From positions 99,200,001-99,264,000 of the forward strand of contig NC_135660.1 of NCBI RefSeq assembly GCF_964188315.1: a DNA stretch of 64,000 nt, read 5' to 3'. Shown piece after piece: positions 4,341-51,400 of the stretch. Made by a program: the position numbers and the translations under genes. The notes below the pieces were generated by a model. It searched no databases. It saw only the letters and a program-made list of their open reading frames with translations, and was not told the DNA's origin. This DNA is from Podarcis muralis (taxonomy: Eukaryota). The first letter of the stretch is position 1, and each line of letters begins with the position of its first letter.

Positions 4341-5974
4341 CTGGGAAAGAATCATTCCACATTTTAAAGAGATAGCACTGGCAAGGAGCAACTCACATTC
4401 CCACATCCAATCTTAAGGACCAGGTCAGTGGCTAATATTCAGCAGGGACTGTATCTGTACTGAGCAAAGGGCTGAAGGGCTAATGGCACTGAGTCAGGGC
4501 AGAGCCAGAGGAGAGGCATGATAGCCTTCTCACAGGCATTCCATTCACCACTGTGGGAAACAGCATACCAGGCCTCCCTCAAAAGTGAAGCTTTAGCTGA
4601 ATCCTTCCCTAAGCTCCCCTCTTCAGCTGACTTTCTCAAGACAAAGGCGAAGGCTCTAGAGCGCCACACCCCCTCCCAGCAAGAATCACAACAGTGGGGA
4701 TGTCGGGAGTTGCCTTCTTTCCGGCCTTCAGCAACCAACTCCTGTGCATGAGCCAAGACGCAGGCAAGTAGGAGTGAGCAGCTGAGGGGCAAAACAAGAG
4801 AAGGGAAGTTGTTCTGTGCCCTCTCTGGAATTAACCTGCTGTTTCCAAAGGACAATTCTCACACTCCGAAAGGGCACAGAACAACTTGCTCCTGGCCCCA
4901 ACCCTGCCTGCCTTTGGCAGACACCAGATGCTGAATGCTCCAGGGACCAAAATAGATTTTCTCATCATGAAACTAGGGGACTCTTGAATGCAGCTGAAAA
5001 ACAGTGAAGGGTCACTGTGAGGTAAAGGAACAGTTTTGTTTATCACTAACAGGTAAATTGAAAATGATCCTTCTCCGCACTCCCTGCAAAAAGTAAGGGA
5101 TAGAAACATGGTCCCCATTTAAATATCAAGCTCTCAATAAAACTGTGTCCCATGTTAGAGGGCAGCAGTTTCCGCTGTCTTATTAGCAAGCCATTCTTGA
5201 ATCCATAATGCAGGATTCTGCAACCTGGTGCCCTCCAGATGTTTTGACGACAACTCCTTTCAGCACAGGCCAGCATGGCCACTGCTGAGTGTGGCCACTG
5301 GAAGCGGTAGCTGAAAACATCTGGAGGGCATCACTTTGCAGTAAGGCCAGAGCTATAGGTCACACTCTGGAACTTTCATTCTCAGTTCTCAGGAAACAGT
5401 GAGTAAAGCTCAAGATTTCTAGCAGGGAATTCTTAAGACCCTCACCAAGTATAATTTCTGGACCTCTTGAGAAGTGAACTTATAAGAACCAGTTGTTCTT
5501 GGGTGCCTGTTTCCACATTCCTACTTTATGTGGGAAGAGGCCCGACATCAGTTCAGCTTGAAGGTGCCACAAGGCTCTTTGTACTTTTTTGAAAGCAAGA
5601 CTCCTCAAATATTTCGGTCCTAGCTACACATTTGGCAAAAAACACGTGACTGGGACTCCCTTTCTCTGTGCAGGTGCAGACCTAGTTTTCAGAAGACACA
5701 GGTGTGGGGAGGTGCTTACACACATAAACTGTTACTTTTCCCAATTTCATAGGAAAATCTGCTTGGGGTGTAGCAAGGAGAAAGCAGCAGACAAAGGAAG
5801 GGCAGGGAAGCTGGGGACCACCCATCACGGCTGCTCTGCAAATCCCTGCAAAAAGAGACCAGGTGGCTGAAATTCCCATCTCTGGGCTAGCCACTGGCCC
5901 TCCGCTACATGGCATAGTGGAGATGCTATCATTGGTGGACAGCACAGGGAGTAAGTGGTAAGAGATGTACTTAC

Positions 5975-6087
5975 GTAACACAGGCAGCATTTGGAGGTTT
6001 CTGCCCGTAGTAGCTGTACGGGGCAGTTAATCCACACAACTCACACTCAAAAGTGCCACAGCACTGGGACTCCTTGCTGCACTTCAT
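5975..6087 (-). CDS. CDPF1: CDPF1 first coding exon (MKCSKESQCCGTFECELCGLTAPYSYYGQKPPNAACV)
   Basis: ATG at 6087-6085; FECELC.LTAPYSY.GQKPPN motif of CDPF1; |gtaagt donor at 5974-5969. Confidence 0.93.
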
Positions 6088-13613: not shown

Positions 13614-16600
13614 TCAAATGACAAGATAAACCATTTTTTTGCCGTTTATTTTTCTGGCTTTGAGCCCCAGGTGGTGTGTGCTTTTCCTCTCAGGATGCCC
13701 AAACAGAACTCTGTTGAAAAGCTCTGCATCAGCTGTGGATGCTGACCTGCAGGTTACAAAAAACCAGACCCTGCGAATCTTATGAAACAGAAAATTTACT
13801 ACCTCTGCTTCGTCAGAAGGCTCTTCATAGACGGGTTGCTTCATGTCCTCATAGGCAGACATAATCACAGCTTGAAATAAATTGATCAAAACGCAGATCA
13901 TCACCATCATGAACGAAGCCAGGAAGAGACCCCCCAGAATCCTATTGGATGTAAAGGCAGTGTCTTTAAAAGCCGAAACACAGTAAGAGAAGACTGTCTG
14001 AGCAGAATGAGTCATTGTGTTGTAATTCCATTCGTGTTGTCCAAATACCAGGTAACCAAATGCCATGTATACAAAGAAGTACACCGCCACCACTAAAGCC
14101 ATAGAACAGATGCCAGGAAGGGCTGCTAAAATAGATCGCTGAGCCAGGCGCACATCGTAAAAGAATCGGGAATACCGGAGAGTTTTCAAGACTATGAGGA
14201 AGACCAAGAAACCCAGAGTTATCCGCAATGTTTGATCAACATGGGAAACTTTATGGAACGGAACAAATTCATCTGGGTGAAGTAAAAACAATTCTGTTAT
14301 TGCAGAAGCCAATTTAAATTTGAAGGCAAGCTGCAAAAGGAAGAAGACACACACACCCTTTATCCCAAAATTAATTAAATTTGAAACAGTTTTTATGTAT
14401 TTTAGCCTTTGTTGCTCCACCACAGAAAACTCATCGATGATGTAAAAGACAAGAATATAGCCAACAGCTATATAGACAAACTTTTTCATACCACTTAGCT
14501 GCTTGAAAATGGGGAGTGTGTATGAATGGATTATCAAGCTTGTGTTAACAGGGCCTAAATTAGAAATCTCAAATACAACTGAGATACTGCAAAATAAATC
14601 GACATCTGGATTAAAAGTTGTCATCTCAACTATCAGTGCCCAGGTATTTTCATCAAGCCAGCTGCTCCCTTTCAAAGCATCGATTCTTTTTGTTGAGTTA
14701 TGCAGTTGCTCTTCAGGATAAAAATCAAAAGTGTATCCTGCTGCTCCATAAGTGTTTAGTTCTCCATATGAATTATATTGCCAAGGATCCGGGAGGGAGT
14801 GGTAAGTGAAGCCTGGAAAATTGGCAAAATTATTTGAAACAGACCTATTGGCTGTGTTTGCCCAAGACCCAAAGTGGTTTCTTTGCTCTTCCCTGTCATG
14901 GCCATACTTGTGAAGGCAATGGCTTGTACTAATCACAAATTTATGTACAAAACTATGTGGATAGAAACATTCTTTTATTGTATTCTTTGCTCTAACTTGC
15001 CGCATTCTGGGTAACCCAAGGATTTTGGACCAGGTATCTGAAAGATAGGATGGTTTGTTATTGTTGTGGATCAAAGGCAGAAAGACATTGCTAAGCCAAC
15101 TGTAAATGTGCTCTATTTTAGTGATACTTGAAAGCTCCGGAGAGAACTTGTTTTGAATATCCTGGTTGTAGTAAAAACTAGCAGTGTTTTCCATTGAGTA
15201 AGCAATGTTTAAAACAAGAATTAAAAAGACAAAGTGACATATTATGTCCTTTATGAAAATGAAAGCTTGTTGTTCAATCTTCTGTTTTTTCTTAAAAATT
15301 GTGATTTCATCCTCTTCCAGGGGTTGGTAGTGCTTGGTACCTCTCGCTCTAACGAGGTCATAATGCAATTCTCGCATATCATCAGCATCCATAGTTGCAT
15401 CTTCCAGATTAATCTCTAAGAAGGTGTTTTTGCTTGACCATGGAACATTTTCACAGTATTTGGGATAAAGTGTCTCCAAGGCTGAAAAAATCCCTATGGT
15501 CAGAGTTTGAAGCAAAAATACACATGCAGAAAAAGAGATGGTGGATGCTGTTAGCCACTCGAATGATGTTTCATAGTCATAGTGCAGACCATAAAATATG
15601 ATAAAAAATGATGACACAGCAGATATGACCAAGGCCACCATCCACAAAATAGATTGATTCCACCATGAAAACACTATTTGTGGCTTTCTATAAAAGAGCA
15701 TGTGGGGAATATTTGGTGGTTTTATCTGAGGATATATATCATTCTTTACATAATTATTACTAGAATTGATATTGGGCTTAGAATCTTGGGTTATGTCCTC
15801 TTCTGTTGCAATTACATTTGCATCACCCTCAGAAATTGTGCAGTTGGTCCAACTTTTTCCTGCCTGTCGCCATTTTATCTTTTTTGATTGTTCCAGTTCG
15901 GATGATTCTGAGACACTGGAAGGCCTCCTTGGGAAATTAGGTCCTGGGATGTTTGAACCAGTTTCTACAAGGTACCACTTCTGCAGACGTTCCTGCCAAT
16001 TTCTAAAGTCCCCAGACATGAAAGCAGAGTATTCTGGAGGGTAGGTCTCCATTGCATTCAGTGGTGAAGGTTCCTTCTGAGAATATTTCAGGGAAGCTGT
16101 TACAATCATTTGCAAAGGAAAAGCAATGAAAGCACTTTGGATTCCGATTATTATGGATCTCAAATATTGTAACTCTTCAGAAAACATGTTTCGATCCTCA
16201 TCTGCGTTGAAGAACATAACGTTGATAAGCAGGATGCACAATAGTATTGCTAAACAACAAGAAAGCCGTTGAAGCCTGTTCAAAGAAGTTGAACAGACAT
16301 GAGCAAAGATCGAGAACCATAAGTGACAATCCACCAGGTCATTGGCAATGTTTATCATTAAGAAATCAATTTTGTTTAAAGGTGCTGCTGGCTGAGTAAC
16401 AACTAATGTCCTCTCTATTAGGCCGTCTGCCTTGTCAAGAGCAAACCATTTCCGGCACATGAACACCCAAGACTGTTTGGAGTATATGTTTTCCACTTTG
16501 ACTCTACTCAAGAACCAATCAGGGGAAGAACCTGCATTATTGTGCCAGACTTGAAGGCAATAAATTTCTCCGAGGTCATTCTTACTCGTCAAGAGAAAAG

Positions 16601-19600
16601 TATCAATGGCCCCTCGAAGAAAAGTCGGGTGTTTGGGGTGTCTTAAGCAATGTACGTCACTGACAGCACTTTGGCCGATTAGCTGAATAAAAACATTGGC
16701 TGTGGTTGCTGCTCCAAAACGGCTGCCTGTGTATATTGTGACCAGGTAGCACACTTGATCAAAAGGATCATTGTCTGGCAAGACTATGGCATGGTCTCTG
16801 CTCTTCATATCGGCCCTATCTTTTCTTATTGTCCAAATAGCCAAGAAGATGTATACTACCAAAATGAAAAGTACCGTCAACATTGTCACAGGATTTTTGT
16901 CGTTTTGGGTTAACTGGACCTCTTTCATTTCTACTGGACTGGGATATGCAGTTACTTCCCCAGCCAAAAAGTTGATGTTATCTCTGTAGGTTCTTCTTGG
17001 CTGAGAATTTGCAGTCCTTGGAATACGCTTTTTGCCTGTGCAAATGCAATGTAATTTTTGCCAACTGGTCTGAGGGCCAAGGCTGCAGAGGTCTTCTTTC
17101 CAATGACTTTGGACTCCATCCATGTGTAAGCAGTTGGCAGTAAAAATCACAATGCCAACTAGCTGACTTACAGAAAGGTCGGATTGTAAAACAATGGATA
17201 TGTTCAATTGTTTTGCACTGTTGCCTTGGAATATTGTTCTGAGCAATGTCTGGGAAAGACAAAATATGTACGGAGTCTGAAGTGCACAGCCATTATTACT
17301 GGAGCTATTTCTCCTTGGTATTGCAGGTTTGTTATGGAAAATACTAAAAGCCGCTACAGCAAGATTGCTGTTCCTTAAACCTAGGTATACAAATGCCTGG
17401 AAAGTGACCTTTAGTTTTGGCATAATCTGAATGAAAATATCTTTGGAATTCTTACAGACTTCAAAACTAAATTCTCCAGTTGTTTTAGGGAGTTTGCTGC
17501 CATGTCCCATCATCAACTCAAAGATGACAGTTTCTTCATTTTTTCTGGTCATTATAATTTCTGCTGTATCAGGCATGATTCCAAGCATGTCACCATTAGA
17601 TTTGGTCCCTATCATCTTGAATCCAGTCACCATTGTGCCAATGTTATCTGTATTTGGCAACCAAGGAAAAGGATTCTTGTCAAACTCATAAACAACAGTG
17701 GAGATCACAGCATCCACTGGTAATTCATTGTTCTCCTGTCTCATTTTGGGATAAAAGCAGTTCCTGCAGTCTTTTCTCTTTGAGAAAGCACTGATAACAT
17801 CCCACTTTTCATCTTTTCTTAATGTGATGCTCCAACCATTGGCTTCCATAATAGTTTCACTCTCTCCAGGAACTTTACCTTGTAAAATTAGGTCCGCTAA
17901 AATCTCACTGACAGAGATGGTTTCCTTAACCCCATTTTTGTGAACAGTTCTATGTTCTAACAGAGCAGCTTTCAGGACATTGGACAACCCTGCAAAAATA
18001 CTAGTGCAAAGAACCTCTGTTTCTTTAGAACCTAGGTTGTCATTGCTCTGCCTTTGCACTTCTTCACTTAAATCTTTGAGTTTTCTGATGGCAAGTAGTT
18101 GCGATTTCCTATTTATTTCAGTGGTTTCCTGTGTTATCTGAGAAATACTTGAGATCATTTGGTTTGTCCCTGTTACGTCTATTGTAGGGATAGCTGCAGA
18201 CCTATTTAGAAGGATTTCCCGCAGTTCAGTTTTAGAGGAATGAAATTTTTGCAAGCTTTCAATATCATTTAAAGTAGAAGCCACCATGTAGACAAAATAA
18301 CCTGCCCTAAAATAGTCTCCACTTTTGAGAAAAGATGCTATTGGAGCTGTGGGTCCATGGGTTAAATCATGTAATTCATTTATTATGGCATCATTTTGCT
18401 TACCTTTCAATGGACTATTCACCATTGTCTGTAAAGTTATTTGGGAGTATGCTCCAAGTGCATCATAAATTTCAACATATACTTTTAAAGCACCAGTGGG
18501 TAAAAAAGTTGGTGGAGTTTTAGGCTGATGCCCACAATACACAATTGTCCCCAATATACCGTTGTCTGGAGAATGTAGTCTAGTAGAGGTCCATTTATCT
18601 GATACTGCTTTGACTTTATATGTAAGAGGCAAATTTTTATCTTTAAACCCACTACAGTGAACAATGAATTTTGTTAAGAATGACATTCCCATGGCAGGGC
18701 TAAGGACACACTTTCCCGGTACTGGTGGAAAGTTTACAAAAAATAAGTAACTATAGACTGATGACTCTCCTTTCCACATGCTCACTTTTAAAACAAGCAT
18801 ATATGATTGTTCTCTCATATTCACAAAACTCAAAGAACGTATACATAAGTATGGACTTGATCTTCCAGTTGTAGTCTTAGAGTCCCAGTCAAAATGTATT
18901 TCGGTGGAATTTGGTGAGAAAAGTGACCAGTGGTAGAGTGGTCTGCTAGATTTTCTGCAATTTAGACATTTACCAGAAAGACAAAATCTTTCTGTTGGTA
19001 TTATTGACCTACCACAATTTTCAATACATGTGATATTCAGCATCAGTGCAGAGTCAGACCGCACATGTATCATTTGCTGAGCTTGAGCCGTTCGGCTTCC
19101 TTTTTGAACTACCAGGAGAAAATAATAAACAACATTTTCCTGAAGCGTTTTGGGTAGAACTGTTTGAACTGGGTCAGAGGAAGCTGTCCATTTCAAATCC
19201 ACTTGTTCTGGATAACATTTTCCATTTCCACTTAAGATCATGGATGCAAAGTCTGTTTTTTGTTTAGTGCAGTACCAAGTAAATGTGAGTCCTTCAAAGG
19301 GTTGGGCTGCATCAGGATCAGAAGAAGCGGATCCATCCAGAGTCCACTGGCTAGAAAAACCAACTGTCTGCACAGCACCTCCAGCAATGACAGCCACAAG
19401 ACTGCCTGGTCCAATCGCTACAAACACTGAATCAGAGTCTTCCACACTCTCCAAAGTATCCATTGCAATTAATTTCACTGTAAAATTAAAGAGGTACAAA
19501 CCATAATCTAAGCTAGATGCAGGAACTTCTAACATGAGAAGATTTCTGCTTCCAATGCCAGGTGCATTAAATGGTTTTGACCAGTCTGGAGTACTGTTCA

Positions 19601-21653
19601 CATCTGGGATTTTAAAGATTTTCCAGGTTAGGTCTCGTAGTTTAGAACCTGGACAATTCACCTCTGTGTCAGCAGACAAAGTAAATGGTACCCTTTTAAT
19701 ATGGTTTAAGATACGGTTTTTAGGATGAGGTTTCTGGATCTTCACTTTCTTAATTAAACAACTCATTTGAAGGCAAGTCACTGTGGATTCCACAGTCTTT
19801 GAAGCATAAGTGTGGACTGTAGCTTTCAAAGCAGCTTGAGTATTCCCAGTTCTTGTGCAGTTTACTTGGGCTACATACCCTGCATACAGGGCAGGGTTGA
19901 AAGGTAAAACTGCATGAGGAATGAATTGGGCAGCATTTCTGACATGATCCCTGTAAGCATAGGTATTGTTCCAAAAGAGGTATTCTTTCCTTGAATCAAA
20001 ATATTCTAAGTTGAAGGCCCACTTGAATTGCAAGAGAGGGTGTTGCACTGGAATAAACCACACAATATAGACCACACTTTGTAAAAAAGAAGGACCACTG
20101 TTGAAAATGTGAATCTCTATATCTTTCCTTGAAAAATAACTCAGAAGGGCTCCTTTCCTGTTAAGGTATAGATGTACACTGAACTTGAACCACCGTAGTT
20201 GAATAAACTCTATTGCGATCAAATAAGACAGAGACTGATGCTGATAGAAAAAGTAGTGCGTGCTTGAGAGGTTGCCAGAGGAACTGGCAGCATTTCCGCC
20301 TTGGGCGAAATAGTAAAGCCCCTGCGTGCGGCTAAAAATGTAAGTGCCCATCTTGATTTTCTGTGTGTTGAGAGTGAGGTGCGCCTGGGGCTCACTCTTT
20401 GATGTTAGATTTAAGGTGGTATTAGAGTAACCAAGTTCTCCACCTAGCTCCCCAGAGGCCGCCTCATCTACACAGAAGTAGATACTGGCCACTGTTTTCT
20501 TCCTGGAATGCTGTGGGATATGCACAAGAGTGTAATTGTTCTGTAGAGCATACGGATTGTAGAAAGTAGACCAGACCCTTCTACCCTTAACATCCCATAG
20601 TCTGTAGGCCATTTTTTGGGAGTTGACAGGCAGGAAGCTCCAAGAGAGGCTGATGGTCTTATGAGAGATGCTGAGCAATTTGGAATGGGTACTGCAAATG
20701 TGTAGCAGAATGGGTTCCACCTGCAAATCGAGGCTCAGGCTAATCTGGGGCCGCTGCTTAATGTGGAGGGACGAAATATATATCCCTTGGTGCGTGTAAT
20801 GCACAGTCAGGCGATAGCTGAAGAAGGATTTGCACTTGTGGTGCAGTTCACCACTATGGTAGTGGGCAAAGTGTGCAGAATCTGGATGATAGCTGGTGGG
20901 GAGGAGACGACCCTGCCGACTGCTGTAGTGATAACGCCAACTTGAAGTCTTGAGGTGTGCACACCAGCCCAGCTGCACCAGCTGCCACTCGTGGATGGGA
21001 CGTGTGAGCGGCCAAAGCAGGAAGAGTTGGACATCCTGCCCAAACACTTCAATGCTCAGGTTGCAGTGAAGGCATGCAGTTGTTGTGCAGGAAGGTGACA
21101 CACACTGTATGAGGATGCAGCAGGATGGATGGATGTCTCCTCTTGCTAACTTAGGGCCCAGCACTATCCGGCCTGACCAAAGAATCATATTACACATGAA
21201 AGCAACCTTCCAGCGCCAGCAGCAGTGAGCAGATGGTAATACTGTCTGCTGTTTCCCAGTCCTTGAAACAAATCTTACAGCTGTTAAATGATTATGCCCA
21301 GGATGCCCATCCTGCAGACATGAAGTCTGGAGTTTGTCCTCTTGTAGCTGATGGATGTAGTTTTGTTGGTCAGAGCATGGGACCAGCAATGGAGGTAGCT
21401 GTAAATAAGGGGTCATGGCTGCTGCATATTGAAAACGACCCCAGCCTAAGAAGAGGAGAGTGAAGAATAATAGAAGGTGCATCTTGAGGATGAGAAAAAA
21501 AACTTGAACCAGAAGCAGCCACTGTCTCCTGATAGCCCCAACTGCCATAGAGTGAATGACTGGGAATTCTAGAATTCTACTCATCACTGGGCAACCAGTA
21601 TCCATGCTTCCCAGCTCATCAAAATAAAAATAAAAATCTCCTCCCTTGATCAT
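13614..21653 (-). CDS. PKDREJ: PKDREJ copy 1, intronless polycystin family receptor for egg jelly; most mammal-like copy
   Basis: 2679-aa uninterrupted ORF. Probable start is Met58 at 21482 (MHLLLFFTLLFLGWGRFQYAAA signal peptide). Contains REJ region (LDGSASSDPD), degenerate GPS (WKEDLCSLGPQTSWQKLHCIC), PLAT (YLVTIYTGSRFGAATTANVF), polycystin channel TMs and the PKDREJ-type C-terminus KINGKKMVYLVI. Lies between CDPF1 and TTC38 as in mammals. Confidence 0.96.
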   Translation of the reverse strand: MIKGGDFYFYFDELGSMDTGCPVMSRILEFPVIHSMAVGAIRRQWLLLVQVFFLILKMHLLLFFTLLFLGWGRFQYAAAMTPYLQLPPLLVPCSDQQNYIHQLQEDKLQTSCLQDGHPGHNHLTAVRFVSRTGKQQTVLPSAHCCWRWKVAFMCNMILWSGRIVLGPKLARGDIHPSCCILIQCVSPSCTTTACLHCNLSIEVFGQDVQLFLLWPLTRPIHEWQLVQLGWCAHLKTSSWRYHYSSRQGRLLPTSYHPDSAHFAHYHSGELHHKCKSFFSYRLTVHYTHQGIYISSLHIKQRPQISLSLDLQVEPILLHICSTHSKLLSISHKTISLSWSFLPVNSQKMAYRLWDVKGRRVWSTFYNPYALQNNYTLVHIPQHSRKKTVASIYFCVDEAASGELGGELGYSNTTLNLTSKSEPQAHLTLNTQKIKMGTYIFSRTQGLYYFAQGGNAASSSGNLSSTHYFFYQHQSLSYLIAIEFIQLRWFKFSVHLYLNRKGALLSYFSRKDIEIHIFNSGPSFLQSVVYIVWFIPVQHPLLQFKWAFNLEYFDSRKEYLFWNNTYAYRDHVRNAAQFIPHAVLPFNPALYAGYVAQVNCTRTGNTQAALKATVHTYASKTVESTVTCLQMSCLIKKVKIQKPHPKNRILNHIKRVPFTLSADTEVNCPGSKLRDLTWKIFKIPDVNSTPDWSKPFNAPGIGSRNLLMLEVPASSLDYGLYLFNFTVKLIAMDTLESVEDSDSVFVAIGPGSLVAVIAGGAVQTVGFSSQWTLDGSASSDPDAAQPFEGLTFTWYCTKQKTDFASMILSGNGKCYPEQVDLKWTASSDPVQTVLPKTLQENVVYYFLLVVQKGSRTAQAQQMIHVRSDSALMLNITCIENCGRSIIPTERFCLSGKCLNCRKSSRPLYHWSLFSPNSTEIHFDWDSKTTTGRSSPYLCIRSLSFVNMREQSYMLVLKVSMWKGESSVYSYLFFVNFPPVPGKCVLSPAMGMSFLTKFIVHCSGFKDKNLPLTYKVKAVSDKWTSTRLHSPDNGILGTIVYCGHQPKTPPTFLPTGALKVYVEIYDALGAYSQITLQTMVNSPLKGKQNDAIINELHDLTHGPTAPIASFLKSGDYFRAGYFVYMVASTLNDIESLQKFHSSKTELREILLNRSAAIPTIDVTGTNQMISSISQITQETTEINRKSQLLAIRKLKDLSEEVQRQSNDNLGSKETEVLCTSIFAGLSNVLKAALLEHRTVHKNGVKETISVSEILADLILQGKVPGESETIMEANGWSITLRKDEKWDVISAFSKRKDCRNCFYPKMRQENNELPVDAVISTVVYEFDKNPFPWLPNTDNIGTMVTGFKMIGTKSNGDMLGIMPDTAEIIMTRKNEETVIFELMMGHGSKLPKTTGEFSFEVCKNSKDIFIQIMPKLKVTFQAFVYLGLRNSNLAVAAFSIFHNKPAIPRRNSSSNNGCALQTPYIFCLSQTLLRTIFQGNSAKQLNISIVLQSDLSVSQLVGIVIFTANCLHMDGVQSHWKEDLCSLGPQTSWQKLHCICTGKKRIPRTANSQPRRTYRDNINFLAGEVTAYPSPVEMKEVQLTQNDKNPVTMLTVLFILVVYIFLAIWTIRKDRADMKSRDHAIVLPDNDPFDQVCYLVTIYTGSRFGAATTANVFIQLIGQSAVSDVHCLRHPKHPTFLRGAIDTFLLTSKNDLGEIYCLQVWHNNAGSSPDWFLSRVKVENIYSKQSWVFMCRKWFALDKADGLIERTLVVTQPAAPLNKIDFLMINIANDLVDCHLWFSIFAHVCSTSLNRLQRLSCCLAILLCILLINVMFFNADEDRNMFSEELQYLRSIIIGIQSAFIAFPLQMIVTASLKYSQKEPSPLNAMETYPPEYSAFMSGDFRNWQERLQKWYLVETGSNIPGPNFPRRPSSVSESSELEQSKKIKWRQAGKSWTNCTISEGDANVIATEEDITQDSKPNINSSNNYVKNDIYPQIKPPNIPHMLFYRKPQIVFSWWNQSILWMVALVISAVSSFFIIFYGLHYDYETSFEWLTASTISFSACVFLLQTLTIGIFSALETLYPKYCENVPWSSKNTFLEINLEDATMDADDMRELHYDLVRARGTKHYQPLEEDEITIFKKKQKIEQQAFIFIKDIICHFVFLILVLNIAYSMENTASFYYNQDIQNKFSPELSSITKIEHIYSWLSNVFLPLIHNNNKPSYLSDTWSKILGLPRMRQVRAKNTIKECFYPHSFVHKFVISTSHCLHKYGHDREEQRNHFGSWANTANRSVSNNFANFPGFTYHSLPDPWQYNSYGELNTYGAAGYTFDFYPEEQLHNSTKRIDALKGSSWLDENTWALIVEMTTFNPDVDLFCSISVVFEISNLGPVNTSLIIHSYTLPIFKQLSGMKKFVYIAVGYILVFYIIDEFSVVEQQRLKYIKTVSNLINFGIKGVCVFFLLQLAFKFKLASAITELFLLHPDEFVPFHKVSHVDQTLRITLGFLVFLIVLKTLRYSRFFYDVRLAQRSILAALPGICSMALVVAVYFFVYMAFGYLVFGQHEWNYNTMTHSAQTVFSYCVSAFKDTAFTSNRILGGLFLASFMMVMICVLINLFQAVIMSAYEDMKQPVYEEPSDEAEVVNFLFHKIRRVWFFVTCRSASTADAELFNRVLFGHPERKSTHHLGLKARKINGKKMVYLVI
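21566..21595. promoter_or_regulatory. HSE-like TTCTAGAA plus RFX X-box half-site upstream of PKDREJ copy 1
   Basis: attctagaa at 21566-21574 and catcactgggcaac at 21582-21595, 84-113 bp upstream of ATG 21482; homologous to the modules upstream of copies 2 and 3. Confidence 0.55.
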
Positions 21654-22879
21654 AGTACCTGAACAGCAGCAGTTCCCTAAGGTCTCAGGAAGATGGTTTT
21701 AAGAAGCTGTTTCTTAAAACCCCATAAATTCATCCTCCTCAGAGGAGGAAGAGTGAAAAACACTACATAATTCCTCTGATGGCTGAAGTAATCCCCCACT
21801 CCAGTTTTTGGAATTGTGCCCTAGGCACTTCAGAGGACGCTGCAGCCTTTTGCTGAGGGAGAGTAGATTTTATCAGGTCGCCCTCTTCTTGACTCAGCAC
21901 AGCCTGCCTTTTTCTGCAAGCACAATGTCTCTGCAGCACAGTCTATATGCTTAGACTGCTGCACTGCTTTCCTTGGACCCACAAGAGGGTTCAGGTATTG
22001 TTGATGCCACCATCTCCTGCTCTGATGTCCTTCCTGGGTACAGAAGAGGAATAACTCAATAAAATAGGCCTTCAGCAGGGCTAAGGCTAGATATGCACCT
22101 GTGCCAGGAGCGAGGGCGCAAGGCCGCCAACCACACAGCAAGCATTTTGGGTGGGAAACTGCAGGCAAGCAGTAGGACTACTCTGAGGCTCTCCCCCCCG
22201 TCATGTCCTCTGATCACTCCCACCCGACAGCAGCAGCAAGGAAAGGGAGAACATGAAGAAAGGTTCTTTGTAATTTCATAAAGTTTTAGTGGAAAAAATA
22301 GCTGCAGAAGGAAACTAAATGTGTGTGGGGGAAGGCGCACAGCCACTCTGGAGGGTGAGGAGAAGGGCTGTGAGGGAGCTCAGGCAGAATAATCAGTAAG
22401 GCAGATAAGGCTAAAGTCAATTAGAAGAAAGATAAGATCAGGAAATAAAAAGGCTCAAGGATTGCAGAGCAAATAAAAGGCTGGCTACTGTCAACAAGGC
22501 AGAGAAGAAAGCTGGAGATGTGCTGGCCCACTTCTCAGAAATCTCTGCTCCTTCCTTGTCATGTGACCAGGGATATCATCCGACCCAGGGCCTGAATGGC
22601 ACCAGAAATAAATATGCCATTAAAAAAAATTTTTTTTAAAAGACCCAACGCGCAGCATTGATAGAACAAGTTAATTGTAAGTAGTCAACTGCTGCCTCTG
22701 CTGGGGTTGGGTGGGATTTCTGAATGTTGATTGTTGCTTCGTGTTTCTCATATAAATAAGTAAAAATAATAAAGTATTTGTGGGGGGACCCATTTGAGAA
22801 TACTGAGGGATGGGGCTTGCTTTATCTAATGTGGAACTGAATCCCATAACTCTGGGGCCACTGCCAAAATGGCCCTGTT

Positions 22880-23454: not shown

Positions 23455-23563
23455 TTCTGACAATCTGGCTCCAACATCTGGCTACAATTGCGTCAACTGA
23501 AATTTCTGGATGATCTTCAAAGGCAGCTGCCTGCAGAGTGCCTTACAGTAGTCTAGCCCCCAT

Positions 23564-23897
23564 TGTGGGAAAATGATTGCTTGTACATGAGAGCATGAGC
23601 AAGGTTCTTATTGTTACAGGGTGATTTCATAGCTAGAAGCATCCTTGGAGCATGAACAGCGCGTGAACAGCTCGTGCTGTCCTATGATTGGCTAATGTGG
23701 CATGGCCTGATGCTCGCATAAGTCTAGTGCGAAGGTCCTTATCTGCTTGCTAGAACAAATTGCTTGGCTTGTACTTTGTATCTTTCTGATTTCACACAAT
23801 AAAAGCTGCGCTGCATCAGCCCTAGGAGCAGCCATATTTCGGAACTTATTATGATGTGAGACTGACTTTTCTTTGGATGCCGAGCTGCAACTCGACA
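23564..23897 (+). repeat. 5' LTR of the provirus
   Basis: tgtggga...ctcgaca, contains AATAAA, followed by the PBS; matches 27392-27725. Confidence 0.97.
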
Positions 23898-23899
23898 AT

Positions 23900-23914
23900 T
23901 GGTGCCCCGTGTGA
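23900..23914 (+). promoter_or_regulatory. Primer-binding site complementary to elongator tRNA-Met
   Basis: tggtgccccgtgtga 2 nt after the LTR; matches 15 nt of the recalled vertebrate tRNA-Met(CAT) 3' end ...CUCACACGGGGCACCA. Confidence 0.75.
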
Positions 23915-24246
23915 CTGACTTCGGACTTCACGTTGTTTTTCATTATTCAGCACTCACCAACACGTCGTTCATCCACGTAGTGGATCCCTGGTGAGTGCTC
24001 CCGTGTGATTTCTTTCGGACTTCATGCTGTTTTACAACGTTCAGCCTCACCTCGCCCGGCAGGGCTGCAGACGCGTCGTTCATCCACGTAGTGGATCCCC
24101 GGTGAGAGCTCCCGTGTGAATGTGATTCTGGACTACGTTACGGACTTATCAGCACTTACCTCGCCCGGCAAGGGCTTCAGGCGCCATTCATCCTTCCGAG
24201 GATCCCTGGTAAGTTGCTCCCTGCTCTTTTTGCAACTCTTGCAATC

Positions 24247-25482
24247 ATGGGAAAGTCTCTCTCTGCACCACAGAAAAATTTTTTTAAAGACCTTAAATTC
24301 CTTTTGGCCAGTAACAACCTTGCTGTTCGGAAAGCTGACCTTAAGTCCCTTATAAAAGCCCTGGACACTCACTGTCCCTGGTTCCCCCAGGACGGAAATT
24401 GGGAGTTAGACGATTGGAAAAAAATTGGACACTTCTTTCAAAATCATCCTCAGATTGATGTCAAGGTTTTGCATGCCTGGGGTAACGTCTACAAAGCTAT
24501 GTCGTGCTTAACTCCTTCAAACATTCTTCTGGCTGCTGCAACAGCTTCTTCGCCCGCCCTCCAAGCTCCCGCTCTGCCTGCCTCAAACCTACCTCCTAAA
24601 CCGCCGGACATTCTCCCTTCGCCTCCTCCTGTCTCTCCCCTGCATTCTTCAAATTCTGCAGCACCCCCCGCTCTTCCACCTCCTCTGCCCAAGGCATCTG
24701 GCACCGCTTCCACCCCACTTCAAGAATCTCTCCGTGCCGCCGCTCCGTTGTTGGCTTTTGATTCTACAACTCCTAATCTTTTTCCTGTGATTGCTCCTGC
24801 CGCCCCAGGGGGAGGCCCAGCCCGGCACGAACAGTTTGATTTGAGATTCATAAAGGAACTGTATTCTTCTGTCAAGGACAATGGCCCTGCACCCCCAGCC
24901 CCCATTATGCTGAACCAAACTGATGTTCTTGATGGCTTAACTGGCGAAGGCAATTTTCTTACTATTGCCCAACAGTTGGCCCTTGATTCCATGTATTGGA
25001 CAGCTACTACTGCTGCCGCCCAAGAAGCCTTGTCCTCTGTTCCTGATGACAAGAATGAGCGAGATGGCCGTTGGGGCAGCATCAGACAGGGCCCTACAAA
25101 GCCCTATGGACAATTTGTCGATCGCTTGGATAACACTCTTAAGCGGCAAGTTCAGGACGTAGCAGCCCAAGAACTGATTGTCCGCCAGCTTGCGTTTGAG
25201 GACTGTAAGCAAGCACTACGCCCTTTGATGACAACTCCTAATATAGCCATTGCAGATGTGCTTAAAGCCTGCCAGTCAGTGGACACTGAGACACATAAAG
25301 CTTGCCTGCTAGCCACAGCTTTGTCTTCCACCGTGTCCCAGAATCCTGCAAAGGATAAAACCTGCTTTGGATGTGGCAAAGTGGACTATTTTCGTGCGCA
25401 GTGCAGATCTACCGCACAGCAATGTCACTCCAGCACAAAGTGCCCCATCTTTGATACAGGCCAGGACTTGTCAATTTTCTGA
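24247..25482 (+). CDS. gag: Betaretrovirus-like Gag, open but internally deleted (411 aa)
   Basis: MGKSLS myristoylation motif; MA CPWFPQDGNWELDDWKKIG (class II type); Pro-rich region; CA major homology region IRQGPTKPYGQFVDRL; degenerate zinc knuckle CFGCGKVDYFRAQC. Confidence 0.9.
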   Translation: MGKSLSAPQKNFFKDLKFLLASNNLAVRKADLKSLIKALDTHCPWFPQDGNWELDDWKKIGHFFQNHPQIDVKVLHAWGNVYKAMSCLTPSNILLAAATASSPALQAPALPASNLPPKPPDILPSPPPVSPLHSSNSAAPPALPPPLPKASGTASTPLQESLRAAAPLLAFDSTTPNLFPVIAPAAPGGGPARHEQFDLRFIKELYSSVKDNGPAPPAPIMLNQTDVLDGLTGEGNFLTIAQQLALDSMYWTATTAAAQEALSSVPDDKNERDGRWGSIRQGPTKPYGQFVDRLDNTLKRQVQDVAAQELIVRQLAFEDCKQALRPLMTTPNIAIADVLKACQSVDTETHKACLLATALSSTVSQNPAKDKTCFGCGKVDYFRAQCRSTAQQCHSSTKCPIFDTGQDLSIF

Positions 25483-25720
25483 AGCACATCTTAGATCACA
25501 TATTGGTCACCCTGGTTATTTGGCAAAAAGAATTTTACGCCTGCTGAACTTCATTTCTGGAAGGAAGAAATATTGCAGCGTCCTTTGGTGTCTTACAGGT
25601 TGCTTCCAGATCCACAGTGGAAGGGTCCAACTCCCTTGATTTCCTGAGGACCTCCCACTTAATCTCAACCTGCACTGCAGTTGGAGACATCGCCATATTG
25701 ATGTGCCCTGGATAAAGTCA
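25483..25720 (+). pseudogene. Integrase C-terminal remnant (pro/RT/RNaseH absent)
   Basis: Translates ...LVSYRLLPDPQWKGPTPLIS*G..., the W(K)GP motif of class II IN C-termini, with an in-frame stop; only about 800 bp separate the gag stop from the env ORF. Confidence 0.65.
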
Positions 25721-26294
25721 CCTTCCACAGCTGTTGTAGTGTTTCCTGGCACGTTGAAAGACCATCTTCGTTCCTACCCCTTTTTCTCTGGGAAGCCACT
25801 TCAACCATCAAATATCATTACAGTTTTGCTGCCTCTTGTTTGGGAAATGAGCCTGGCTTTGAAGGATGCCCTCGCCGGACCAGCATCGCTTGGACTTTAC
25901 CCCCCAGATCTCTTCTTCTTTTCTCCTCCCTCAGGAGTCCTGCCCTATGATGTATTCCCCTGAGCATGTACAGAAAACTGTCTTTGAACAATTGTGGACT
26001 CTTGGCAGGGGAGGGGGTGAGGGGATTTCAGTGTGTTCCAGTTGTTTCATTCTTGTGCTTTGGCATGGTTCCCGGACAGAGGGCAGGTTGTGTGTGTTTC
26101 TTTATCAAGGCCTGAGAAGACAATGGGCTCTGTTCTCTACCTTGTTGCAATTTTTTTAAGTTACAGCAAGCAGCATATGCTTGGCTAGTGCCTTTTAGCT
26201 GCTGAGAAGCATGATTTTGAAAAGCTCTGAGAAGCCTTGAGCTTGTTTTGGTGGTGGTATTCCAGTAAATGCTTCATATAAGATTAGCAATAAT

Positions 26295-27347
26295 ATGAAG
26301 GACAATCGCATAAGTTTACCTCCTGTATTTCTATCGCTTGTAGAATTAGCTCCTTATTGTTTTCATTTTAATCACAGTAGCAAAAAAATTTTAGGTCATT
26401 ATCCATATTGTAATTGGACACATGAATACATTAATGAATCTTCTTGTTTTCTTAATGTTACAACCATGAGTGGCAGACCAAAGGTTTTAATTAATAATGT
26501 CCCAACTTACATGACCTATGAACAACAAGCTGCGTGTAGAGACTTTTATGTTTGGTTCGACTGGATGAGAAAGAGCAGCAGAACTACATGTTTGCTTCAA
26601 TCTGATTTATGGTTATTTTGTGGCACACGTGCCTACAAAGAAATCCCCTCTGCCTTTTCTGGTACCTGCACGTTAGGTATAGTAGTACCCTTGGTATATA
26701 AAATAGATAAGCTCCCAGCGGTCCGTTTGCGTAACAGAAGGGAAGTACAATCACCTATTTCTCAATATACAGGGACAGCCATCTCTAGGTCCCTTCTGCC
26801 TTCTTTAGGTGCAGCCATGAATTACCGTGATTTGCATAAATTGGCAAACTGGACAGAAAATTTGTTTAATTCCACCATTTTGGCTTTAAAAATGATTAAC
26901 AAAGAAATATCAGAAATAAGAAATGTAGTTCTTCAACATCATTATGCTTTAGATGTGATCCTTGCTTCTAAAGGTGGAATTTGTGCCTTAATTCATTCTC
27001 ATTGCTGCATGTATATAACTGATCAATCGGCCAATATCTCTGCTACTATTGATCATATGGAACAAATGATAGCCCATAATCCTTTGAATCCACCTGAAGG
27101 TTTTGATCCATGGGAGTGGTTGTCTTCTTGGCTACCTAATGGATTATGGTTAAGAAAAATATTATTGATTGTAATTGCATGTATTGCTGGCTTCATTATG
27201 GTGTGTTGTTGCATTCAATGCATACCCTCTTTGATTTCCCAATGCACTGCATGGTGGTACCGACCACGGCCCACCACAGGGGTTACAAGAGGAATTTATG
27301 TTGCAAAGTGTAGACGCTTAGGCAATGAAGTGTACGATTTGGACTAA
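26295..27347 (+). CDS. env: Gamma-type Env, N-terminally truncated SU plus intact TM (350 aa)
   Basis: LFCGTRAYKEIPSAFSGTCTLG SU motif; furin site RNRR; ISD LQHHYALDVILASKGGIC; CX6CC (CALIHSHCC); hydrophobic anchor. A signal-peptide-like MGSVLYLVAIFL at 26123 is in another frame with intervening stops. Confidence 0.88.
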   Translation: MKDNRISLPPVFLSLVELAPYCFHFNHSSKKILGHYPYCNWTHEYINESSCFLNVTTMSGRPKVLINNVPTYMTYEQQAACRDFYVWFDWMRKSSRTTCLLQSDLWLFCGTRAYKEIPSAFSGTCTLGIVVPLVYKIDKLPAVRLRNRREVQSPISQYTGTAISRSLLPSLGAAMNYRDLHKLANWTENLFNSTILALKMINKEISEIRNVVLQHHYALDVILASKGGICALIHSHCCMYITDQSANISATIDHMEQMIAHNPLNPPEGFDPWEWLSSWLPNGLWLRKILLIVIACIAGFIMVCCCIQCIPSLISQCTAWWYRPRPTTGVTRGIYVAKCRRLGNEVYDLD

Positions 27348-27391
27348 TGGTCCCTCTTTTCCTCTAATAATATAAACAAGAAAAGGGGATA

Positions 27392-27725
27392 TGTGGGAAA
27401 ATGATTGCTTGTACATGAGAGCATGAGCAAGGTTCTTATTGTTACAGGGTGATTTCATAGCTAGAAGCATCCTTGGAGCATGAACAGCGCGTGAACAGCT
27501 CGTGCTGTCCTATGATTGGCTAATGTGGCATGGCCTGATGCTCGCATAAGTCTAGTGCGAAGGTCCTTATCTGCTTGCTAGAACAAATTGCTTGGCTTGT
27601 ACTTTGTATCTTTCTGATTTCACACAATAAAAGCTGCGCTGCATCAGCCCTAGGAGCAGCCATATTTCGGAACTTATTATGATGTGAGACTGACTTTTCT
27701 TTGGATGCCGAGCTGCAACTCGACA
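27392..27725 (+). repeat. 3' LTR of the provirus
   Basis: Preceded by the PPT, followed by the TSD ccccat; matches the 5' LTR. Confidence 0.97.
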
Positions 27726-27929
27726 CCCCATGGATAACTGGGGCAAAGTCCACTCTCTCCAGATAGGCTGGATAAGGACCTAATTGGACCCTAAGCTGGT
27801 AAAAGCTGCCCCTGGCCTCTACCACCACCAGCATTCCCAATTAGCGCTGAGTCCACTGAGTTCTACAAAGGACAAACAGGCCAGTCTCTATACAAAAGAA
27901 AGAATGAATACAAATTTAAAATCAGGAAA

Positions 27930-28350: not shown

Positions 28351-28593
28351 TAGCAAAATACTCTTTTTTTTTTTTTTTTTTGGCATTTTCCTGCATCATC
28401 AGGACTATGAAACATTTCAATTAAAGCAAGGCTTTTCTAAGGTTTGTGCTTGTCTATTTTGCTTTGCATGACCTGCAATATGTATTTGTATCTTGCTCTT
28501 CCACCAGGAACTCCAGGTTATATGCATGATTCCCTCCACCTGTTATCTTTGCAACAGCCTTATGAGGTAAGGTAGGCTAAGTTCCTGCCAATA

Positions 28594-28947
28594 CAGTGGT
28601 ACCTTGCAAGACGAATGCCTCGCAAGACAAAAAACTCGCTAGACGAAAGGGTTTTTTGTTTTTTGAGCTGCTTCGCAAGACGATTTTCCCTATGGGCTTG
28701 CTTTGCAAGACGGAAGCGTCTTGCAAGTTTGTTTCCTTTTTCTTAACACCGTTAATACAGTTGCGACTTGACTTCGAGGAGCAACTCATAGAACGCGGTG
28801 TGGTAGCCTTTTTTGAGGTTTTAAAAGACTTTGGTATTTTTGAAGCTTTTCCAAAACTTTCCCGACACCGTGCTTCACAAGACGAAAAAAATCGCAAGAC
28901 GACAAAACTCGCGGAACGAATTAATTTCGTCTTGCGAGGCACCACTG
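28594..28947. mobile_element. Tc1/mariner-type MITE (354 bp)
   Basis: TIRs cagtggtacctt...gaggcaccactg, TA flanks. Confidence 0.85.
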
Positions 28948-29639
28948 TAGATCAGAGCTTTCCAAACTGTGTGTTGCAACATGCTAGTGTGTTGGCTGCA
29001 GTGTGTGGGTGTGTCATGCAAATGCTCCCCGCGCTCTTATGGATTAGTTTAACCTCCAGTTTGCTAGTAAAACTGAATTGCTGTGTCATGAAATGATGCA
29101 TGTCTAAAAAGTGTATCCCCAACATGAGAAGTTGGGAAAACTCTGCAATAGATTGTGGGGTCTGCTGTGTGTGAGCAGAGGAAGGCAATCTACAAAGAGT
29201 TTATTGGGCCCCCAAAATCCTGTCGGCATCCCTGCTCTGGAGGAACATTTGGTTGTCATAACCAACAACCTCCCTGCCCCCAAAAAACTTCAGCTACACA
29301 ACCTTAAATTGCTGTGGCCCAAGAACGATCCCTTCAGCTTCATTCACTCCACTCCCCATTGCCATCAAATGTGTTGTGCTTTTCTTTTTTCTTTTTAACA
29401 TTCGAGTTTTATGCGTGATCCAGCAGTTAAAGTAATGCGTAAGGTGTTACAGGAGAGGCAGTACCTCTGGTGGGGGGCATGTTGTGCTCCTTCTGGTGTC
29501 GCCACCCTGCACTTAGCTCTCACCTGTGGCTCCTAGAAGCTGCCAGCGTGTGACAGAGGACACACCCCAACTGGCTGGCTAAAACAGGTGAGGGTAGGCA
29601 ATGGGTCTCAAACCCTTGGTGAGTTAGGAACTTTCTCTG

Positions 29640-31966: not shown

Positions 31967-34900
31967 TTATTCTTCCTTTTTAAACTGTTGCACATAGTTT
32001 TTTCTTTGTTTTCCATACAGCATCCTGTTAAACATGACTGTCTGTGTTGTGGTCCGTGTACCAGTGGTCACAAAAACCCATGCACTATAGATCTTTTGGA
32101 TCACAAAATCCATCATTTCAGCTTCGTGTGCATGTTCTGGATAGATAGATCTCTTTGCCTCCGTATAAGCAGAGATCATAATAGCTTGCAATAAATTGAG
32201 GAAAACACAAATCATCACAAACAAAAAGGAAGTTAAAAAGAGCCCTGCCAGAAACCTATCAGCTGCAAATTCAGTTCCCCTAAATGCTAAGGCGCAGTAA
32301 GATAACACAGTAGTAAAGGAATAAAGCAAAGTACGGTAACTTTCTTCGTGTTGGCCAAATCCTAAATACCCAACTGACATATATGCAAAAAAAAAAATGG
32401 CCCCTCCTACAGACAAGTTAGTAATTGTAGGAAGAGCTTCAAACAATGACTTTTGGGCCAAGCGGACATCAAACATAAACCTGAGATACCGGTATGTTTT
32501 CATAACGAGGAAAAAAGCCAATAATGCCTTAACTGTTCTGACAACTCGATCGAAATGAGCAGCTGCATGGAAGGGAATGAATTGTTCTTGATTATACAAA
32601 TAAAACTGTATTAACTCAAAAGCAAGCTTAAGTCTGAATAGAATCAGCAGCAAAAAAATTAGACAGACTGTCTTAATTCCAAAATTAATTAAATTGGCAG
32701 CTGTTTTTATATAATTCAGCCTTTCTTGACGCAGCATGCGATATTCATCCACAATATAAAATATAAGTATAGCTACAATACATAAAAAAAAGAAAACTTG
32801 ACTACTGGTTCGGTCAGCTAAAAGTGGGAGCTTATAAGAATGAACTGACACACTGCTGACAAGAGGGCCAACATATGAACATTCAAATATGACAGAAATA
32901 CTGCAAAACAGATCTGCATCTGGATTAAAAGTGGTCAGCTCAATAATAGTTACCCAGGTCCTGTGATCAAGCCAGGTGTTGCTTTCCAAAGTCTTCAATC
33001 TTTCTGTTGAATTTATTTGTGGTTCTCCTGTGAAAAAATAAAAGCTGTATCCTCTGGATGGGTAGCTGTTTAATTCTCCATATGACACATATTCCCACTC
33101 AGCAATGCTTTGTTCATAAGTGTAGCCTGAAAAGCTGGTGGGGTTGGCAGCTGGACGATTGACTGGAGCTGACCACGACCCATTGTAGTCAGCTTGATCT
33201 TCTGGGTCACCTCCATATCGGTGTACACAGTGAATATCCGTCAGAAATGCTTTTTGAAAGCTATGTAGATAGGTACATGCCCTGTCAGAATGTATACCTC
33301 TTATTTGTCTCATTCTGGGCGACCCAAGGACTTTGGACCAGGTCTCTGAAAGATAGGTTGGTTGATAGTCATTGTGTATCAACGGCAGAAGGATTTTTTC
33401 CACCCATTTGTAAATATCTTCTACTTTATTTACTTCAGATAAACCAAGAGAAAATTTCTTACGCATAAATCGATTGTAGTGAAAGCTACTGGTGGTTTCT
33501 GTAGGATGAGTATACTTTAAAATTAAAGCTAAAAAGACAAAGTGACAGACCATATTTTTTGCTAAAATATAACCTAGACTCTTAACAGTTGCTTTTTTCC
33601 TCAATATTATAAGCTCTTCGCCTTTAATTGGTTGGTATTTCTTTGAAGCTCTAAGTTTGACAAGGTTATCACGTAACTGTCTCATCTCATTTGCAGGGAT
33701 AGTTCTGTCATTAAACTTAAGATCTTGGTATCTTGTCCATGGGATATTTCTGCAGTATTTTGGATAAATGGTATTCCAGGCTGTAAAAAAAACTACCTTA
33801 AAGGTCTCAAGGAAAAGCACAGTTAGGCAAAATGAGGTAATGGAAGCTATTAACCACTCAAAAGAGGTTTTAGTGGAATAGGGTTGGCCAAGTAGTACAA
33901 TGAAGAATGAGAGCACACCAGATACAGAAAGCACAATGATCCAGGCGATGTATAGAACCCACCAAGTAGACTGTGGTTTGTGTATTTTCTCAGAAAATGT
34001 TTCATTTTCTGCTGCAACATTATTGCTGGAATTGGTGTCTCTGTGGGGGAATTGCTGGGACTTCATCTCTGAGGGTGGAGCAGCTTTTAAATTGCCTTCT
34101 TCACAAAGGTTTTCAGATGAAAAGGAGGAACTTCCTTTTGGGTGAGCTTGAGCTACATTGTGGGCTGAAGGTTTCTTTGATAAATGCTTAAACAAGGTTA
34201 CTAGAATCAATTGCACAGGAACTGAAATCAAAGAACTTTCTATTCCAATTGTTATAGATCTCAAATACTGCAGTTCTACTGAATAAATATGTTGGTCAAT
34301 ATCGTTGAAGAATATAGTGTTAAACATCAGGGAGCTTAACAGTATTGCTAAGCAACAAGTCAGCCTGAGGAATCTGCTGAAAGAGTCATCGTCTAAATGG
34401 ACAAAGACAGACAGCCAAAGATGGTTCTTGAACAGGTCATTGCTAATCATAATACAAAAATAATCAGTCTTGCTTAAGGGTACACTGGGATTTGTAACAG
34501 TAAATGACCTTTCTATTTGGCAATCATCCCTGCCAGGATCAAACCATTTCCTACATATAAATAGCCATGACTGTTTGGTATCCATGTTTTGTACTTGGAT
34601 TCGGCTTAAGAACCAGTTAGGACCAAAGCCATGATTATTGCGCCAGATATGAAGAGAACAAATGTTTCCTAAGTCTCTCTCAGTAGTTAAGAGAAAGGTG
34701 TCAATGGATCCTTCCTGGAAGATCCCTGGGAACTGTGGATGTTTTAAATGATGTACATCACTGGCCCCATTTTGGCCAATCAGTTCAATGAAGACATCAG
34801 CATTGGTGCCTGATCTTAAACGACTTCCTGTGTATATTGTGACTAGATACCTCACCTCGTGAAAGGGATCATTGTCTGGCAAATCTATGACCTGATCCCT

Positions 34901-51327: not shown

Positions 51328-51400
51328 CTTTGGTCTGATGGTTCAGGGGCAGCAGCTGACGACCAGCACCAACAGTTCCACACACACAATAATTGTGTTA

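Follow-up and report, generated by a model that had tools for sequence, protein, structure and literature searches.

A polymorphic, pol-less class II provirus in Podarcis muralis, probably copied by a helper and renewed at its ends by recombination

How does a provirus that has lost its own polymerase come to sit, freshly integrated, in a genome? The question is raised by an endogenous retrovirus (ERV) of 4,162 bp at positions 23564–27725 of the window, by which we mean a stretch of 64,000 nucleotides of the Podarcis muralis genome (assembly GCF_964188315.1, contig NC_135660.1, positions 99,200,001 to 99,264,000, forward strand). A first-pass annotation, made from the letters alone, had described a very recent, pol-less recombinant with beta-type gag and gamma-type env, copied in trans. 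Our analysis indicates that the element is a polymorphic class II provirus whose RNA is probably packaged and reverse-transcribed by proteins of intact relatives, probably trades its ends with their RNA through template switching and probably depends on translation of its own short gag in cis.

A young insertion with a damaged interior

The two long terminal repeats (LTRs; 23564–23897 and 27392–27725, both on the plus strand) run from TG to CA and match over exactly 334 bp (334/334), and a perfect 6-bp target-site duplication, CCCCAT, lies on either side of the provirus (23558–23563 and 27726–27731), both as annotated. LTR identity alone bounds the age at about 2.2–4.5 million years, at an assumed rate of 1–2e-9 per site per year. 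The empty site is a stronger sign of youth and backs the claim of recent integration: in three of four DNA runs, which come from four studies, contigs pass straight from 23557 into 27726, and CCCCAT is present there once. Because three of the four runs carry the empty site, the insertion is polymorphic, which answers a check that the annotation had proposed. The shorter sides of these contigs measure 24, 222 and 164 letters, and two of the three pass a 31-letter bridging rule; the fourth run (X8) gave no empty joint and a contig leading from the LTR end into the 3' flank. Assembly collapse would offer a trivial source for the matching LTRs, and we give it next to no chance: the window LTR is at most 99% identical to that of any other scored copy, and the empty site joins exactly at the duplication.

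Lesions of the interior were mapped by comparison with L002, a full-length copy of the same family. The capsid (CA) deletions and the broken zinc knuckle that had been claimed are both present. The truncated open gag (24247–25482, plus strand, 411 aa, with Gag_p10, Gag_p24 and Gag_p24_C matches) lacks 77 codons of the capsid N-terminal domain, lost in frame at 24885/24890, and 4 more CA codons; in the nucleocapsid (NC), knuckle 1 (25363–25404, plus strand) has lost its His, and most of knuckle 2 is missing. The reported loss of protease (pro) and reverse transcriptase (RT) stands in that all of both is gone, with the correction that a 73-bp piece of RNase H survives (25451–25523, plus strand, out of the gag frame, 79% identical to L002 4658–4730). 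The pol deletion is two-step, leaving this piece and 121 bp of the integrase (IN) C-terminus (25524–25644, plus strand), and gag stops 10 codons past the pol-deletion junction. A stop does close the integrase remnant (TGA, 25645–25647, plus strand), but it arises at the deletion junction into env sequence and not, as had been thought, by a point change; it is common to eight copies. The env N-terminus is disrupted as described: its start, the signal region and the CXXC motif of the surface subunit (SU) are missing, and the 5' remnant (25645–25904, plus strand) has no start codon. In mid-SU, 348 bp of env have given way to foreign sequence (25907–26254, minus strand), a fragment in antisense from a 612-bp LTR-like repeat with no relation to the provirus, after which env resumes.

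This donor repeat begins with TG, ends with CA and is flanked by 4-bp duplications; a TATA box and AATAAA lie on its other strand, both outside the captured piece. Nine copies (L051–L059) are 96–97% alike, from 254 first-look candidates. Five of its 17 pattern hits were inspected and showed no internal region; the class of the repeat is therefore judged from its ends and the 4-bp duplications. Of 40 scored matches to the captured piece, 31 fall within members of the provirus family. Five members (L005, L007, L008, L009 and L014) hold only part of it, env resuming earlier, as if the core boundary had been worn back by crossovers.

Full-length relatives and a mosaic provirus

Genome searches returned 131 LTR, 46 gag and 57 env candidates, and since 40 of each were scored, the family counts are lower bounds. 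Pol-less copies number at least 41, the 41 that we examined. For pol, every one of the 33 candidates was scored; two copies alone, L002 and L044, proved to be full length, giving about 20 pol-less copies to each full-length one; both have gag, pro, pol and env open, and the LTRs are identical within the copy, while LTR type differs between the two. The relatives that the annotation had called for thus exist in the same genome, coding-complete helper-type copies as well as siblings with the same deletions. The NC–RNase H–IN deletion of the window copy recurs in 31 of the 41 pol-less copies, its IN/env junction in 8 copies, and its capsid deletion in 35 of the 41, which bears out the claim that the lesions predate this integration. 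Matching duplications flank 31 LTR pairs, each at a different site; each of these copies is therefore its own integration. Between them these pairs show 14 differences in 10,783 bp, and 21 of the 31 show none (excluded from this pool, for an unmatched duplication, unlike LTRs or unparsed structure, were L004, L011, L012, L013, L019, L030, L033 and single-LTR loci). The deletion markers occur in mixed combinations among the copies, and hence defective genomes recombine with one another.

Ten copies (L019, L024, L025, L029, L038, L039, L043 and L060–L062) have a second type of pol deletion, which spares 276 bp of RT/connection sequence; in seven of them the capsid deletion is present too. Five others (L020, L026, L032, L042 and L050) end abruptly in other sequence, L020 with an open gag and the start of pol.

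The window copy is not uniformly close to any one relative. Against L002 it is 97–100% identical over the part that runs from LTR to matrix and again from 26255 onward, whereas identity falls to 77–89% across the C-terminal domain of CA (CA-CTD), NC and the remnants; by segment, matrix reaches 98% and the transmembrane subunit (TM) 100%, compared with 84% for CA-CTD/NC. Pol-less L016, which has another LTR type and an SU/TM 100% identical to that of L044, matches the window copy at 93–100% across 24764–25813 and at 72–91% elsewhere. Trees agree: matrix and TM group the window copy with L002 (support 100/99 and 98/95), while the core places it among pol-less copies of both LTR types, and approximately unbiased tests reject congruence of the segments (p = 1.6e-64, 3.5e-9 and 1.1e-4; 15–17 rows). 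Judged by these comparisons, the provirus is an old deleted core set between helper-derived ends, a recombination that the annotation had missed. Template switching in particles that hold one defective and one helper RNA is established retroviral biology; it would be the simplest cause of the mosaic, which would in turn be an indirect sign of co-packaging.

The proteins could also have come from a circulating exogenous virus, of which the full-length copies would be by-products and not the protein source. The rarity of full-length copies (2 of 33 pol candidates), the env kept open in them and the ends of pol-less copies, which lie up to 3% off L002, all fit such a source. We nevertheless consider it unlikely, as several pol-less copies match L002 or L044 without a difference in their TM segments and no exogenous sequence is in hand.

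Spread at the DNA level, by gene conversion or segmental duplication, might likewise produce mosaics and shared deletions, and two loci lend it some colour. In L012 (G000:C12:23938200-23943800), one perfect 6-bp duplication encloses LTRs that are about 80% alike, of type A at the 5' end and of type C at the 3' end, likely through gene conversion or an unusual strand transfer; in L004 (G000:C6:5674443-5679662) the LTRs differ at 4 sites and by an indel, and the two flanking duplications are unlike each other, which may reflect ectopic recombination between two copies. As a general account, DNA-level spread is very improbable and already largely refuted by the differing flanks and duplications on many chromosomes, by identical LTR pairs around old cores and by the clean empty site.

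Transcripts of the family are found in RNA data. Two stranded RNA runs give reads at low depth, most of them in the same orientation as the provirus. Reads cross three deletion junctions of pol-less siblings, with skips of 1,812, 1,493 and 61 bases and 3–8 reads each; junctions of the second pol deletion type appear in the RNA reads. Reads were placed on L002 at 93%, a setting at which the window copy, its core being too unlike L002, is not distinguishable. Across four runs from two studies (6–12% of each), no RNA covered pro and 5' RT of L002 (bins 4991–6070), which speaks neither for helper activity nor for silence; among the indexed runs, none was listed as an RNA run carrying the element.

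A kept gag frame and its possible role

In the mechanism that we favour, mobilisation by a helper would begin with transcription from the 5' LTR in the germ line or embryo, followed by co-packaging with helper RNA by means of the retained leader. Priming by tRNA-Met, together with helper RT and IN, would then yield the identical LTRs and the 6-bp duplication. Crossovers in gag and env would hand on the deleted core but replace what surrounds it: the LTR, leader, matrix and TM. Finally, translation of the short Gag may benefit its own RNA in cis, through RNA stability, targeting or co-assembly.

The last step is proposed in view of the state of gag. The short frame is open (371–484 aa) in 36 of the 41 pol-less copies, being broken in L009, L022 and L060–L062, and in 34 of the 35 that have the capsid deletion. 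Counted from chained ungapped blocks, indels keep the frame in 22 of 28 cases in gag versus 19 of 62 in env (P = 3e-5), and in 8 of 9 cases among capsid/NC indels of the defective lineage (P = 0.001). For the gag core, the ratio of nonsynonymous to synonymous polymorphism (pN/pS) comes to 0.40, and for the env piece next to it to 1.50 (P = 0.005), this 5' env remnant evolving neutrally among copies; in type-B copies the two values are 0.59 and 0.92 (P = 0.02). By analogy with the mouse intracisternal A-particle (IAP) 1Δ1 element, the kept frame suggests a role in cis. A role at the level of the protein has about an even chance in our view, and the chance of a cis role through translation of either kind is higher.

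Several observations weigh against the favoured reading or parts of it. Helper and mobilisation alike are deduced from sequence. The core has no close pol-containing copy among those scored, the best being L042 at 89%, itself broken. The unlike LTRs of L012 within a single duplication mean that DNA-level exchange also occurs, and the filled 3' junction in X8 has just 27 letters on the LTR side. As to gag, pN/pS is low even where no function is expected (0.19 in the IN tail and 0.38 in the type-A TM remnant), so that helper-derived diversity depresses, and confounds, these ratios; the type-B env remnant has 0 stop alleles where 6.0 are expected. Some in-frame gag indels are viral lineage differences, the env indel events are not all independent, and the short Gag lacks much of the capsid and the knuckles, which clouds a role for the protein.

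Such findings leave a good deal of room, if somewhat less than half of the probability, for an account in which trans-mobilisation is right and the open gag has no protein role, the frame being kept by translation-linked RNA stability, by descent from few master copies or by renewal from helper RNA. The low ratios in the IN tail and type-A TM remnant and the missing stop alleles in the type-B env remnant agree with it, as do the repeated, tolerated loss of capsid helices and knuckle residues and the case of L009, whose gag is frameshifted and whose LTRs are nevertheless identical to one change. It is opposed by the in-frame excess, which persists for the deletions private to the defective lineage, and by the constraint on the gag core between the two deletions, which the neighbouring env piece does not share.

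Alternatively, the short Gag may have been kept as a protection of the host that poisons the assembly of intact virus, as the defective Gag of sheep enJS56A1 reportedly does. The survival of matrix and reading frame beside a decaying capsid and NC fits this idea. Selection on the host, though, should lead to one fixed locus, and therefore the presence of the trait in 34 dispersed young copies, with the window copy polymorphic, makes this explanation highly improbable. Returning to a benefit for the element itself, we tentatively extend the helper-dependent reading, at slightly less than an even chance, to a deleted core that is a long-lived satellite: it would outlast its helpers by borrowing the LTR (types A, B and C at the least), the leader, matrix and TM of any lineage that happens to be active, and would be selected for a cis-favouring short Gag.

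Class, relatives and surroundings of the provirus

As the window copy has no RT, class was tested on the full-length relatives. The RTs of L002 and L044 bear YMDD, and their best PDB match is 7sr6, which we take to be the HERV-K RT, at E = 1e-78 versus 1e-42 for HIV. Class II domain sets occur in all 120 listed homologues; Gag is of beta type (Gag_p10, Gag_p24, zf-CCHC_5), with two NC knuckles in L002, L020 and L044; gag, pro and pol form three overlapping open reading frames (ORFs), with GGGAAAC and AAATTTA heptamers in the overlaps that predict frameshifting; and the 6-bp duplication is a class II hallmark. A dUTPase match in the pro frame is weak (Pfam E = 0.003, 17.7 bits, under the cut-off of 22) and is read as a degenerate remnant. 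A tRNA-Lys primer is a feature of the betaretrovirus genus; here the primer-binding site (PBS) instead fits host tRNA-Met(CAT). In a midpoint-rooted tree of 23 rows, with no alpharetrovirus row, Pol forms a group with sequences from monitor lizards, its neighbours in the tree, and from turtles and snakes (100/100); SRV-1, SRV-4 and prosimian retrovirus 1 branch elsewhere. The suggested likeness to type-D retroviruses is accordingly not upheld, Pol sitting in a reptile-only class II clade outside SRV/MPMV.

The gamma-type TM, by contrast, was correctly recognised: the 3' part of env (26255–27347, plus strand, 99–100% identical to L002), which spans the SU C-terminus, membrane anchor and tail in a frame of 368 codons with a TLV_coat match in Pfam, contains a furin site, RNRR (26730–26741), a stretch resembling the immunosuppressive domain (ISD) from 26931 and CX6CC (26982–27008), and its best PDB matches are syncytin-2 and syncytin-1. 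By motif definitions in the available text of PMC9967133, all four gamma-type marks (SU CXXC, furin site, ISD and CX6CC) are found in L002 and L044, and three of the four in the window copy, which has lost CXXC. The env swap had been put forward as the novelty of this element; the pairing of beta-type gag with gamma-type env is already present in L002, L044 and a sister class II family with the same Env type that is 67–72% identical in pol. Beta-type TM/Env was not found outside mammals according to the accessible part of PMC3758190. Given the shared Env of the sister family and this restriction to mammals, the pairing is old and expected, and the env type itself ordinary, for a reptile class II ERV. 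An Env search with representatives gave 1,366 matches, all without names; in a separate comparison, the named Env relatives closest to the window copy belong to Podarcis muralis (99%), P. lilfordi and Zootoca. A Podarcis Env described in the available text of bioRxiv 2024.03.17.585361 has CX9CC and hence belongs to another family.

The sister family (L063–L068) is concentrated on contig G000:C20, with at least 15 matches, many of equal score; in L064, a further gag follows env directly, the arrangement of a tandem array. Mid-SU has an additional basic site of furin type ahead of CXXC (KRRFRR, L002 env residues ~231–237 of P0001; also in L044 and L064), its sister-family form being RTRR.

The lizard family works like cattle ERVK D/C, recKoRV/KoRV, ETn/MusD and mouse IAP 1Δ1, and is a new reptile case. 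The middle of recKoRV reportedly derives from an unrelated element. As far as the accessible portions of the sources cited here describe them, cattle's ERVK[2-1-LTR] elements of D-type and their C-type helper share with the lizard family a non-autonomous majority, rare competent copies, polymorphic insertions and an aged middle section, on either side of which the sequence recombines with that of the helper (PMC10924933). They differ in that the D-type has no intact ORF whereas the lizard gag is open, that activity was measured in cattle sperm and is presumed in the lizard, and that the cattle Env clusters with betaretroviruses (PMC10924933); the lizard core, moreover, is found under at least two helper LTR lineages and is mostly deleted same-family sequence. 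Mouse IAP 1Δ1 is likewise class II, has a frame-keeping internal deletion, needs Gag and Pol in trans and outnumbers full-length copies among new insertions (PMC6466679, PMC7411935). Its Gag-Pol fusion has a demonstrated cis role, whereas the lizard Gag stops just past the deletion and has a presumptive one; the lizard copies also keep env remnants, and their helper bears env. Helper-type ends, an older middle and copying in trans are shared with recKoRV/KoRV and ETn/MusD, although recKoRV has its helper among the gammaretroviruses and ETn lacks any coding capacity (PMC10924933, PMC6466679).

Among sauropsids, the Python molurus ERV (PyERV) and avian class II/gamma-env ERVs combine class II gag-pol with a gamma-type TM; the PyERV env, compared by description only, is like that of murine gammaretroviruses, whereas the lizard Env is divergent with named close relatives in lacertids (PMC3758190). 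The invading squamate ERVs Hcur and Ctig of Wang and Han 2023 share identical LTRs, polymorphism and a YMDD-type RT (PMC10435555). Because that survey, by its available text, required intact genes, pol-less families fall outside it, and among its 14 files searched Podarcis muralis occurs in the genome list only; surveys of intact genes miss such families. Our literature search, whose scope left out subscription journals and repeat libraries, returned no account of this lizard family. Defective ERVs that depend on helpers and exceed them in number have been proposed to end germ-line invasions, and the cases cited are all mammalian (PMC10924933); with a polymorphic reptile family, the pattern is no longer confined to mammals. 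For the long-open question, raised in the same source, of why parts of gag and env are kept, the family supplies natural variants by the dozen. If true, the satellite core would be the first of its kind on record for reptiles and would still be segregating among wild lizards.

The remaining features of the provirus are those of a retroviral template. The 5' LTR is of type A, 98% identical to that of L002, with AATAAA at 23798–23803. The PBS (23900–23914, plus strand) is complementary to the 3' end of tRNA-Met at 15 of 18 bases, as in most copies; in sibling L032 the match is 18/18. It opens a leader (23900–24246, plus strand) in which one unit is repeated in tandem three times; the unit combines a PBS-like end, a GGATCC palindrome and a splice-donor motif. 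Relatives have 1–5 units, a number that does not separate pol-less from full-length copies, and the whole-leader RNA folds no better than shuffled sequences (z = −0.6). In gag, matrix and the proline-rich region are helper-type (98%), and the C-terminal part of CA and NC belong to the old core. A polypurine tract (27376–27391, plus strand) directly precedes the 3' LTR.

Upstream, the provirus stands head to head with a PKDREJ-like single ORF (13614–21653, minus strand; REJ, PLAT and polycystin domains), the first Met of which is 1,911 bp from the 5' LTR, in agreement with the annotated neighbour; no link between this ORF and the provirus was shown. It is one of three tandem intronless PKDREJ-like ORFs on the minus strand (13614–21698, 31967–39667 and 43594–51342; 2,566–2,694 codons), all open. 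Downstream, at 28592–28949, the window contains what is likely a miniature inverted-repeat transposable element: it is short, its inverted ends measure 24 bp and its read depth is very high.

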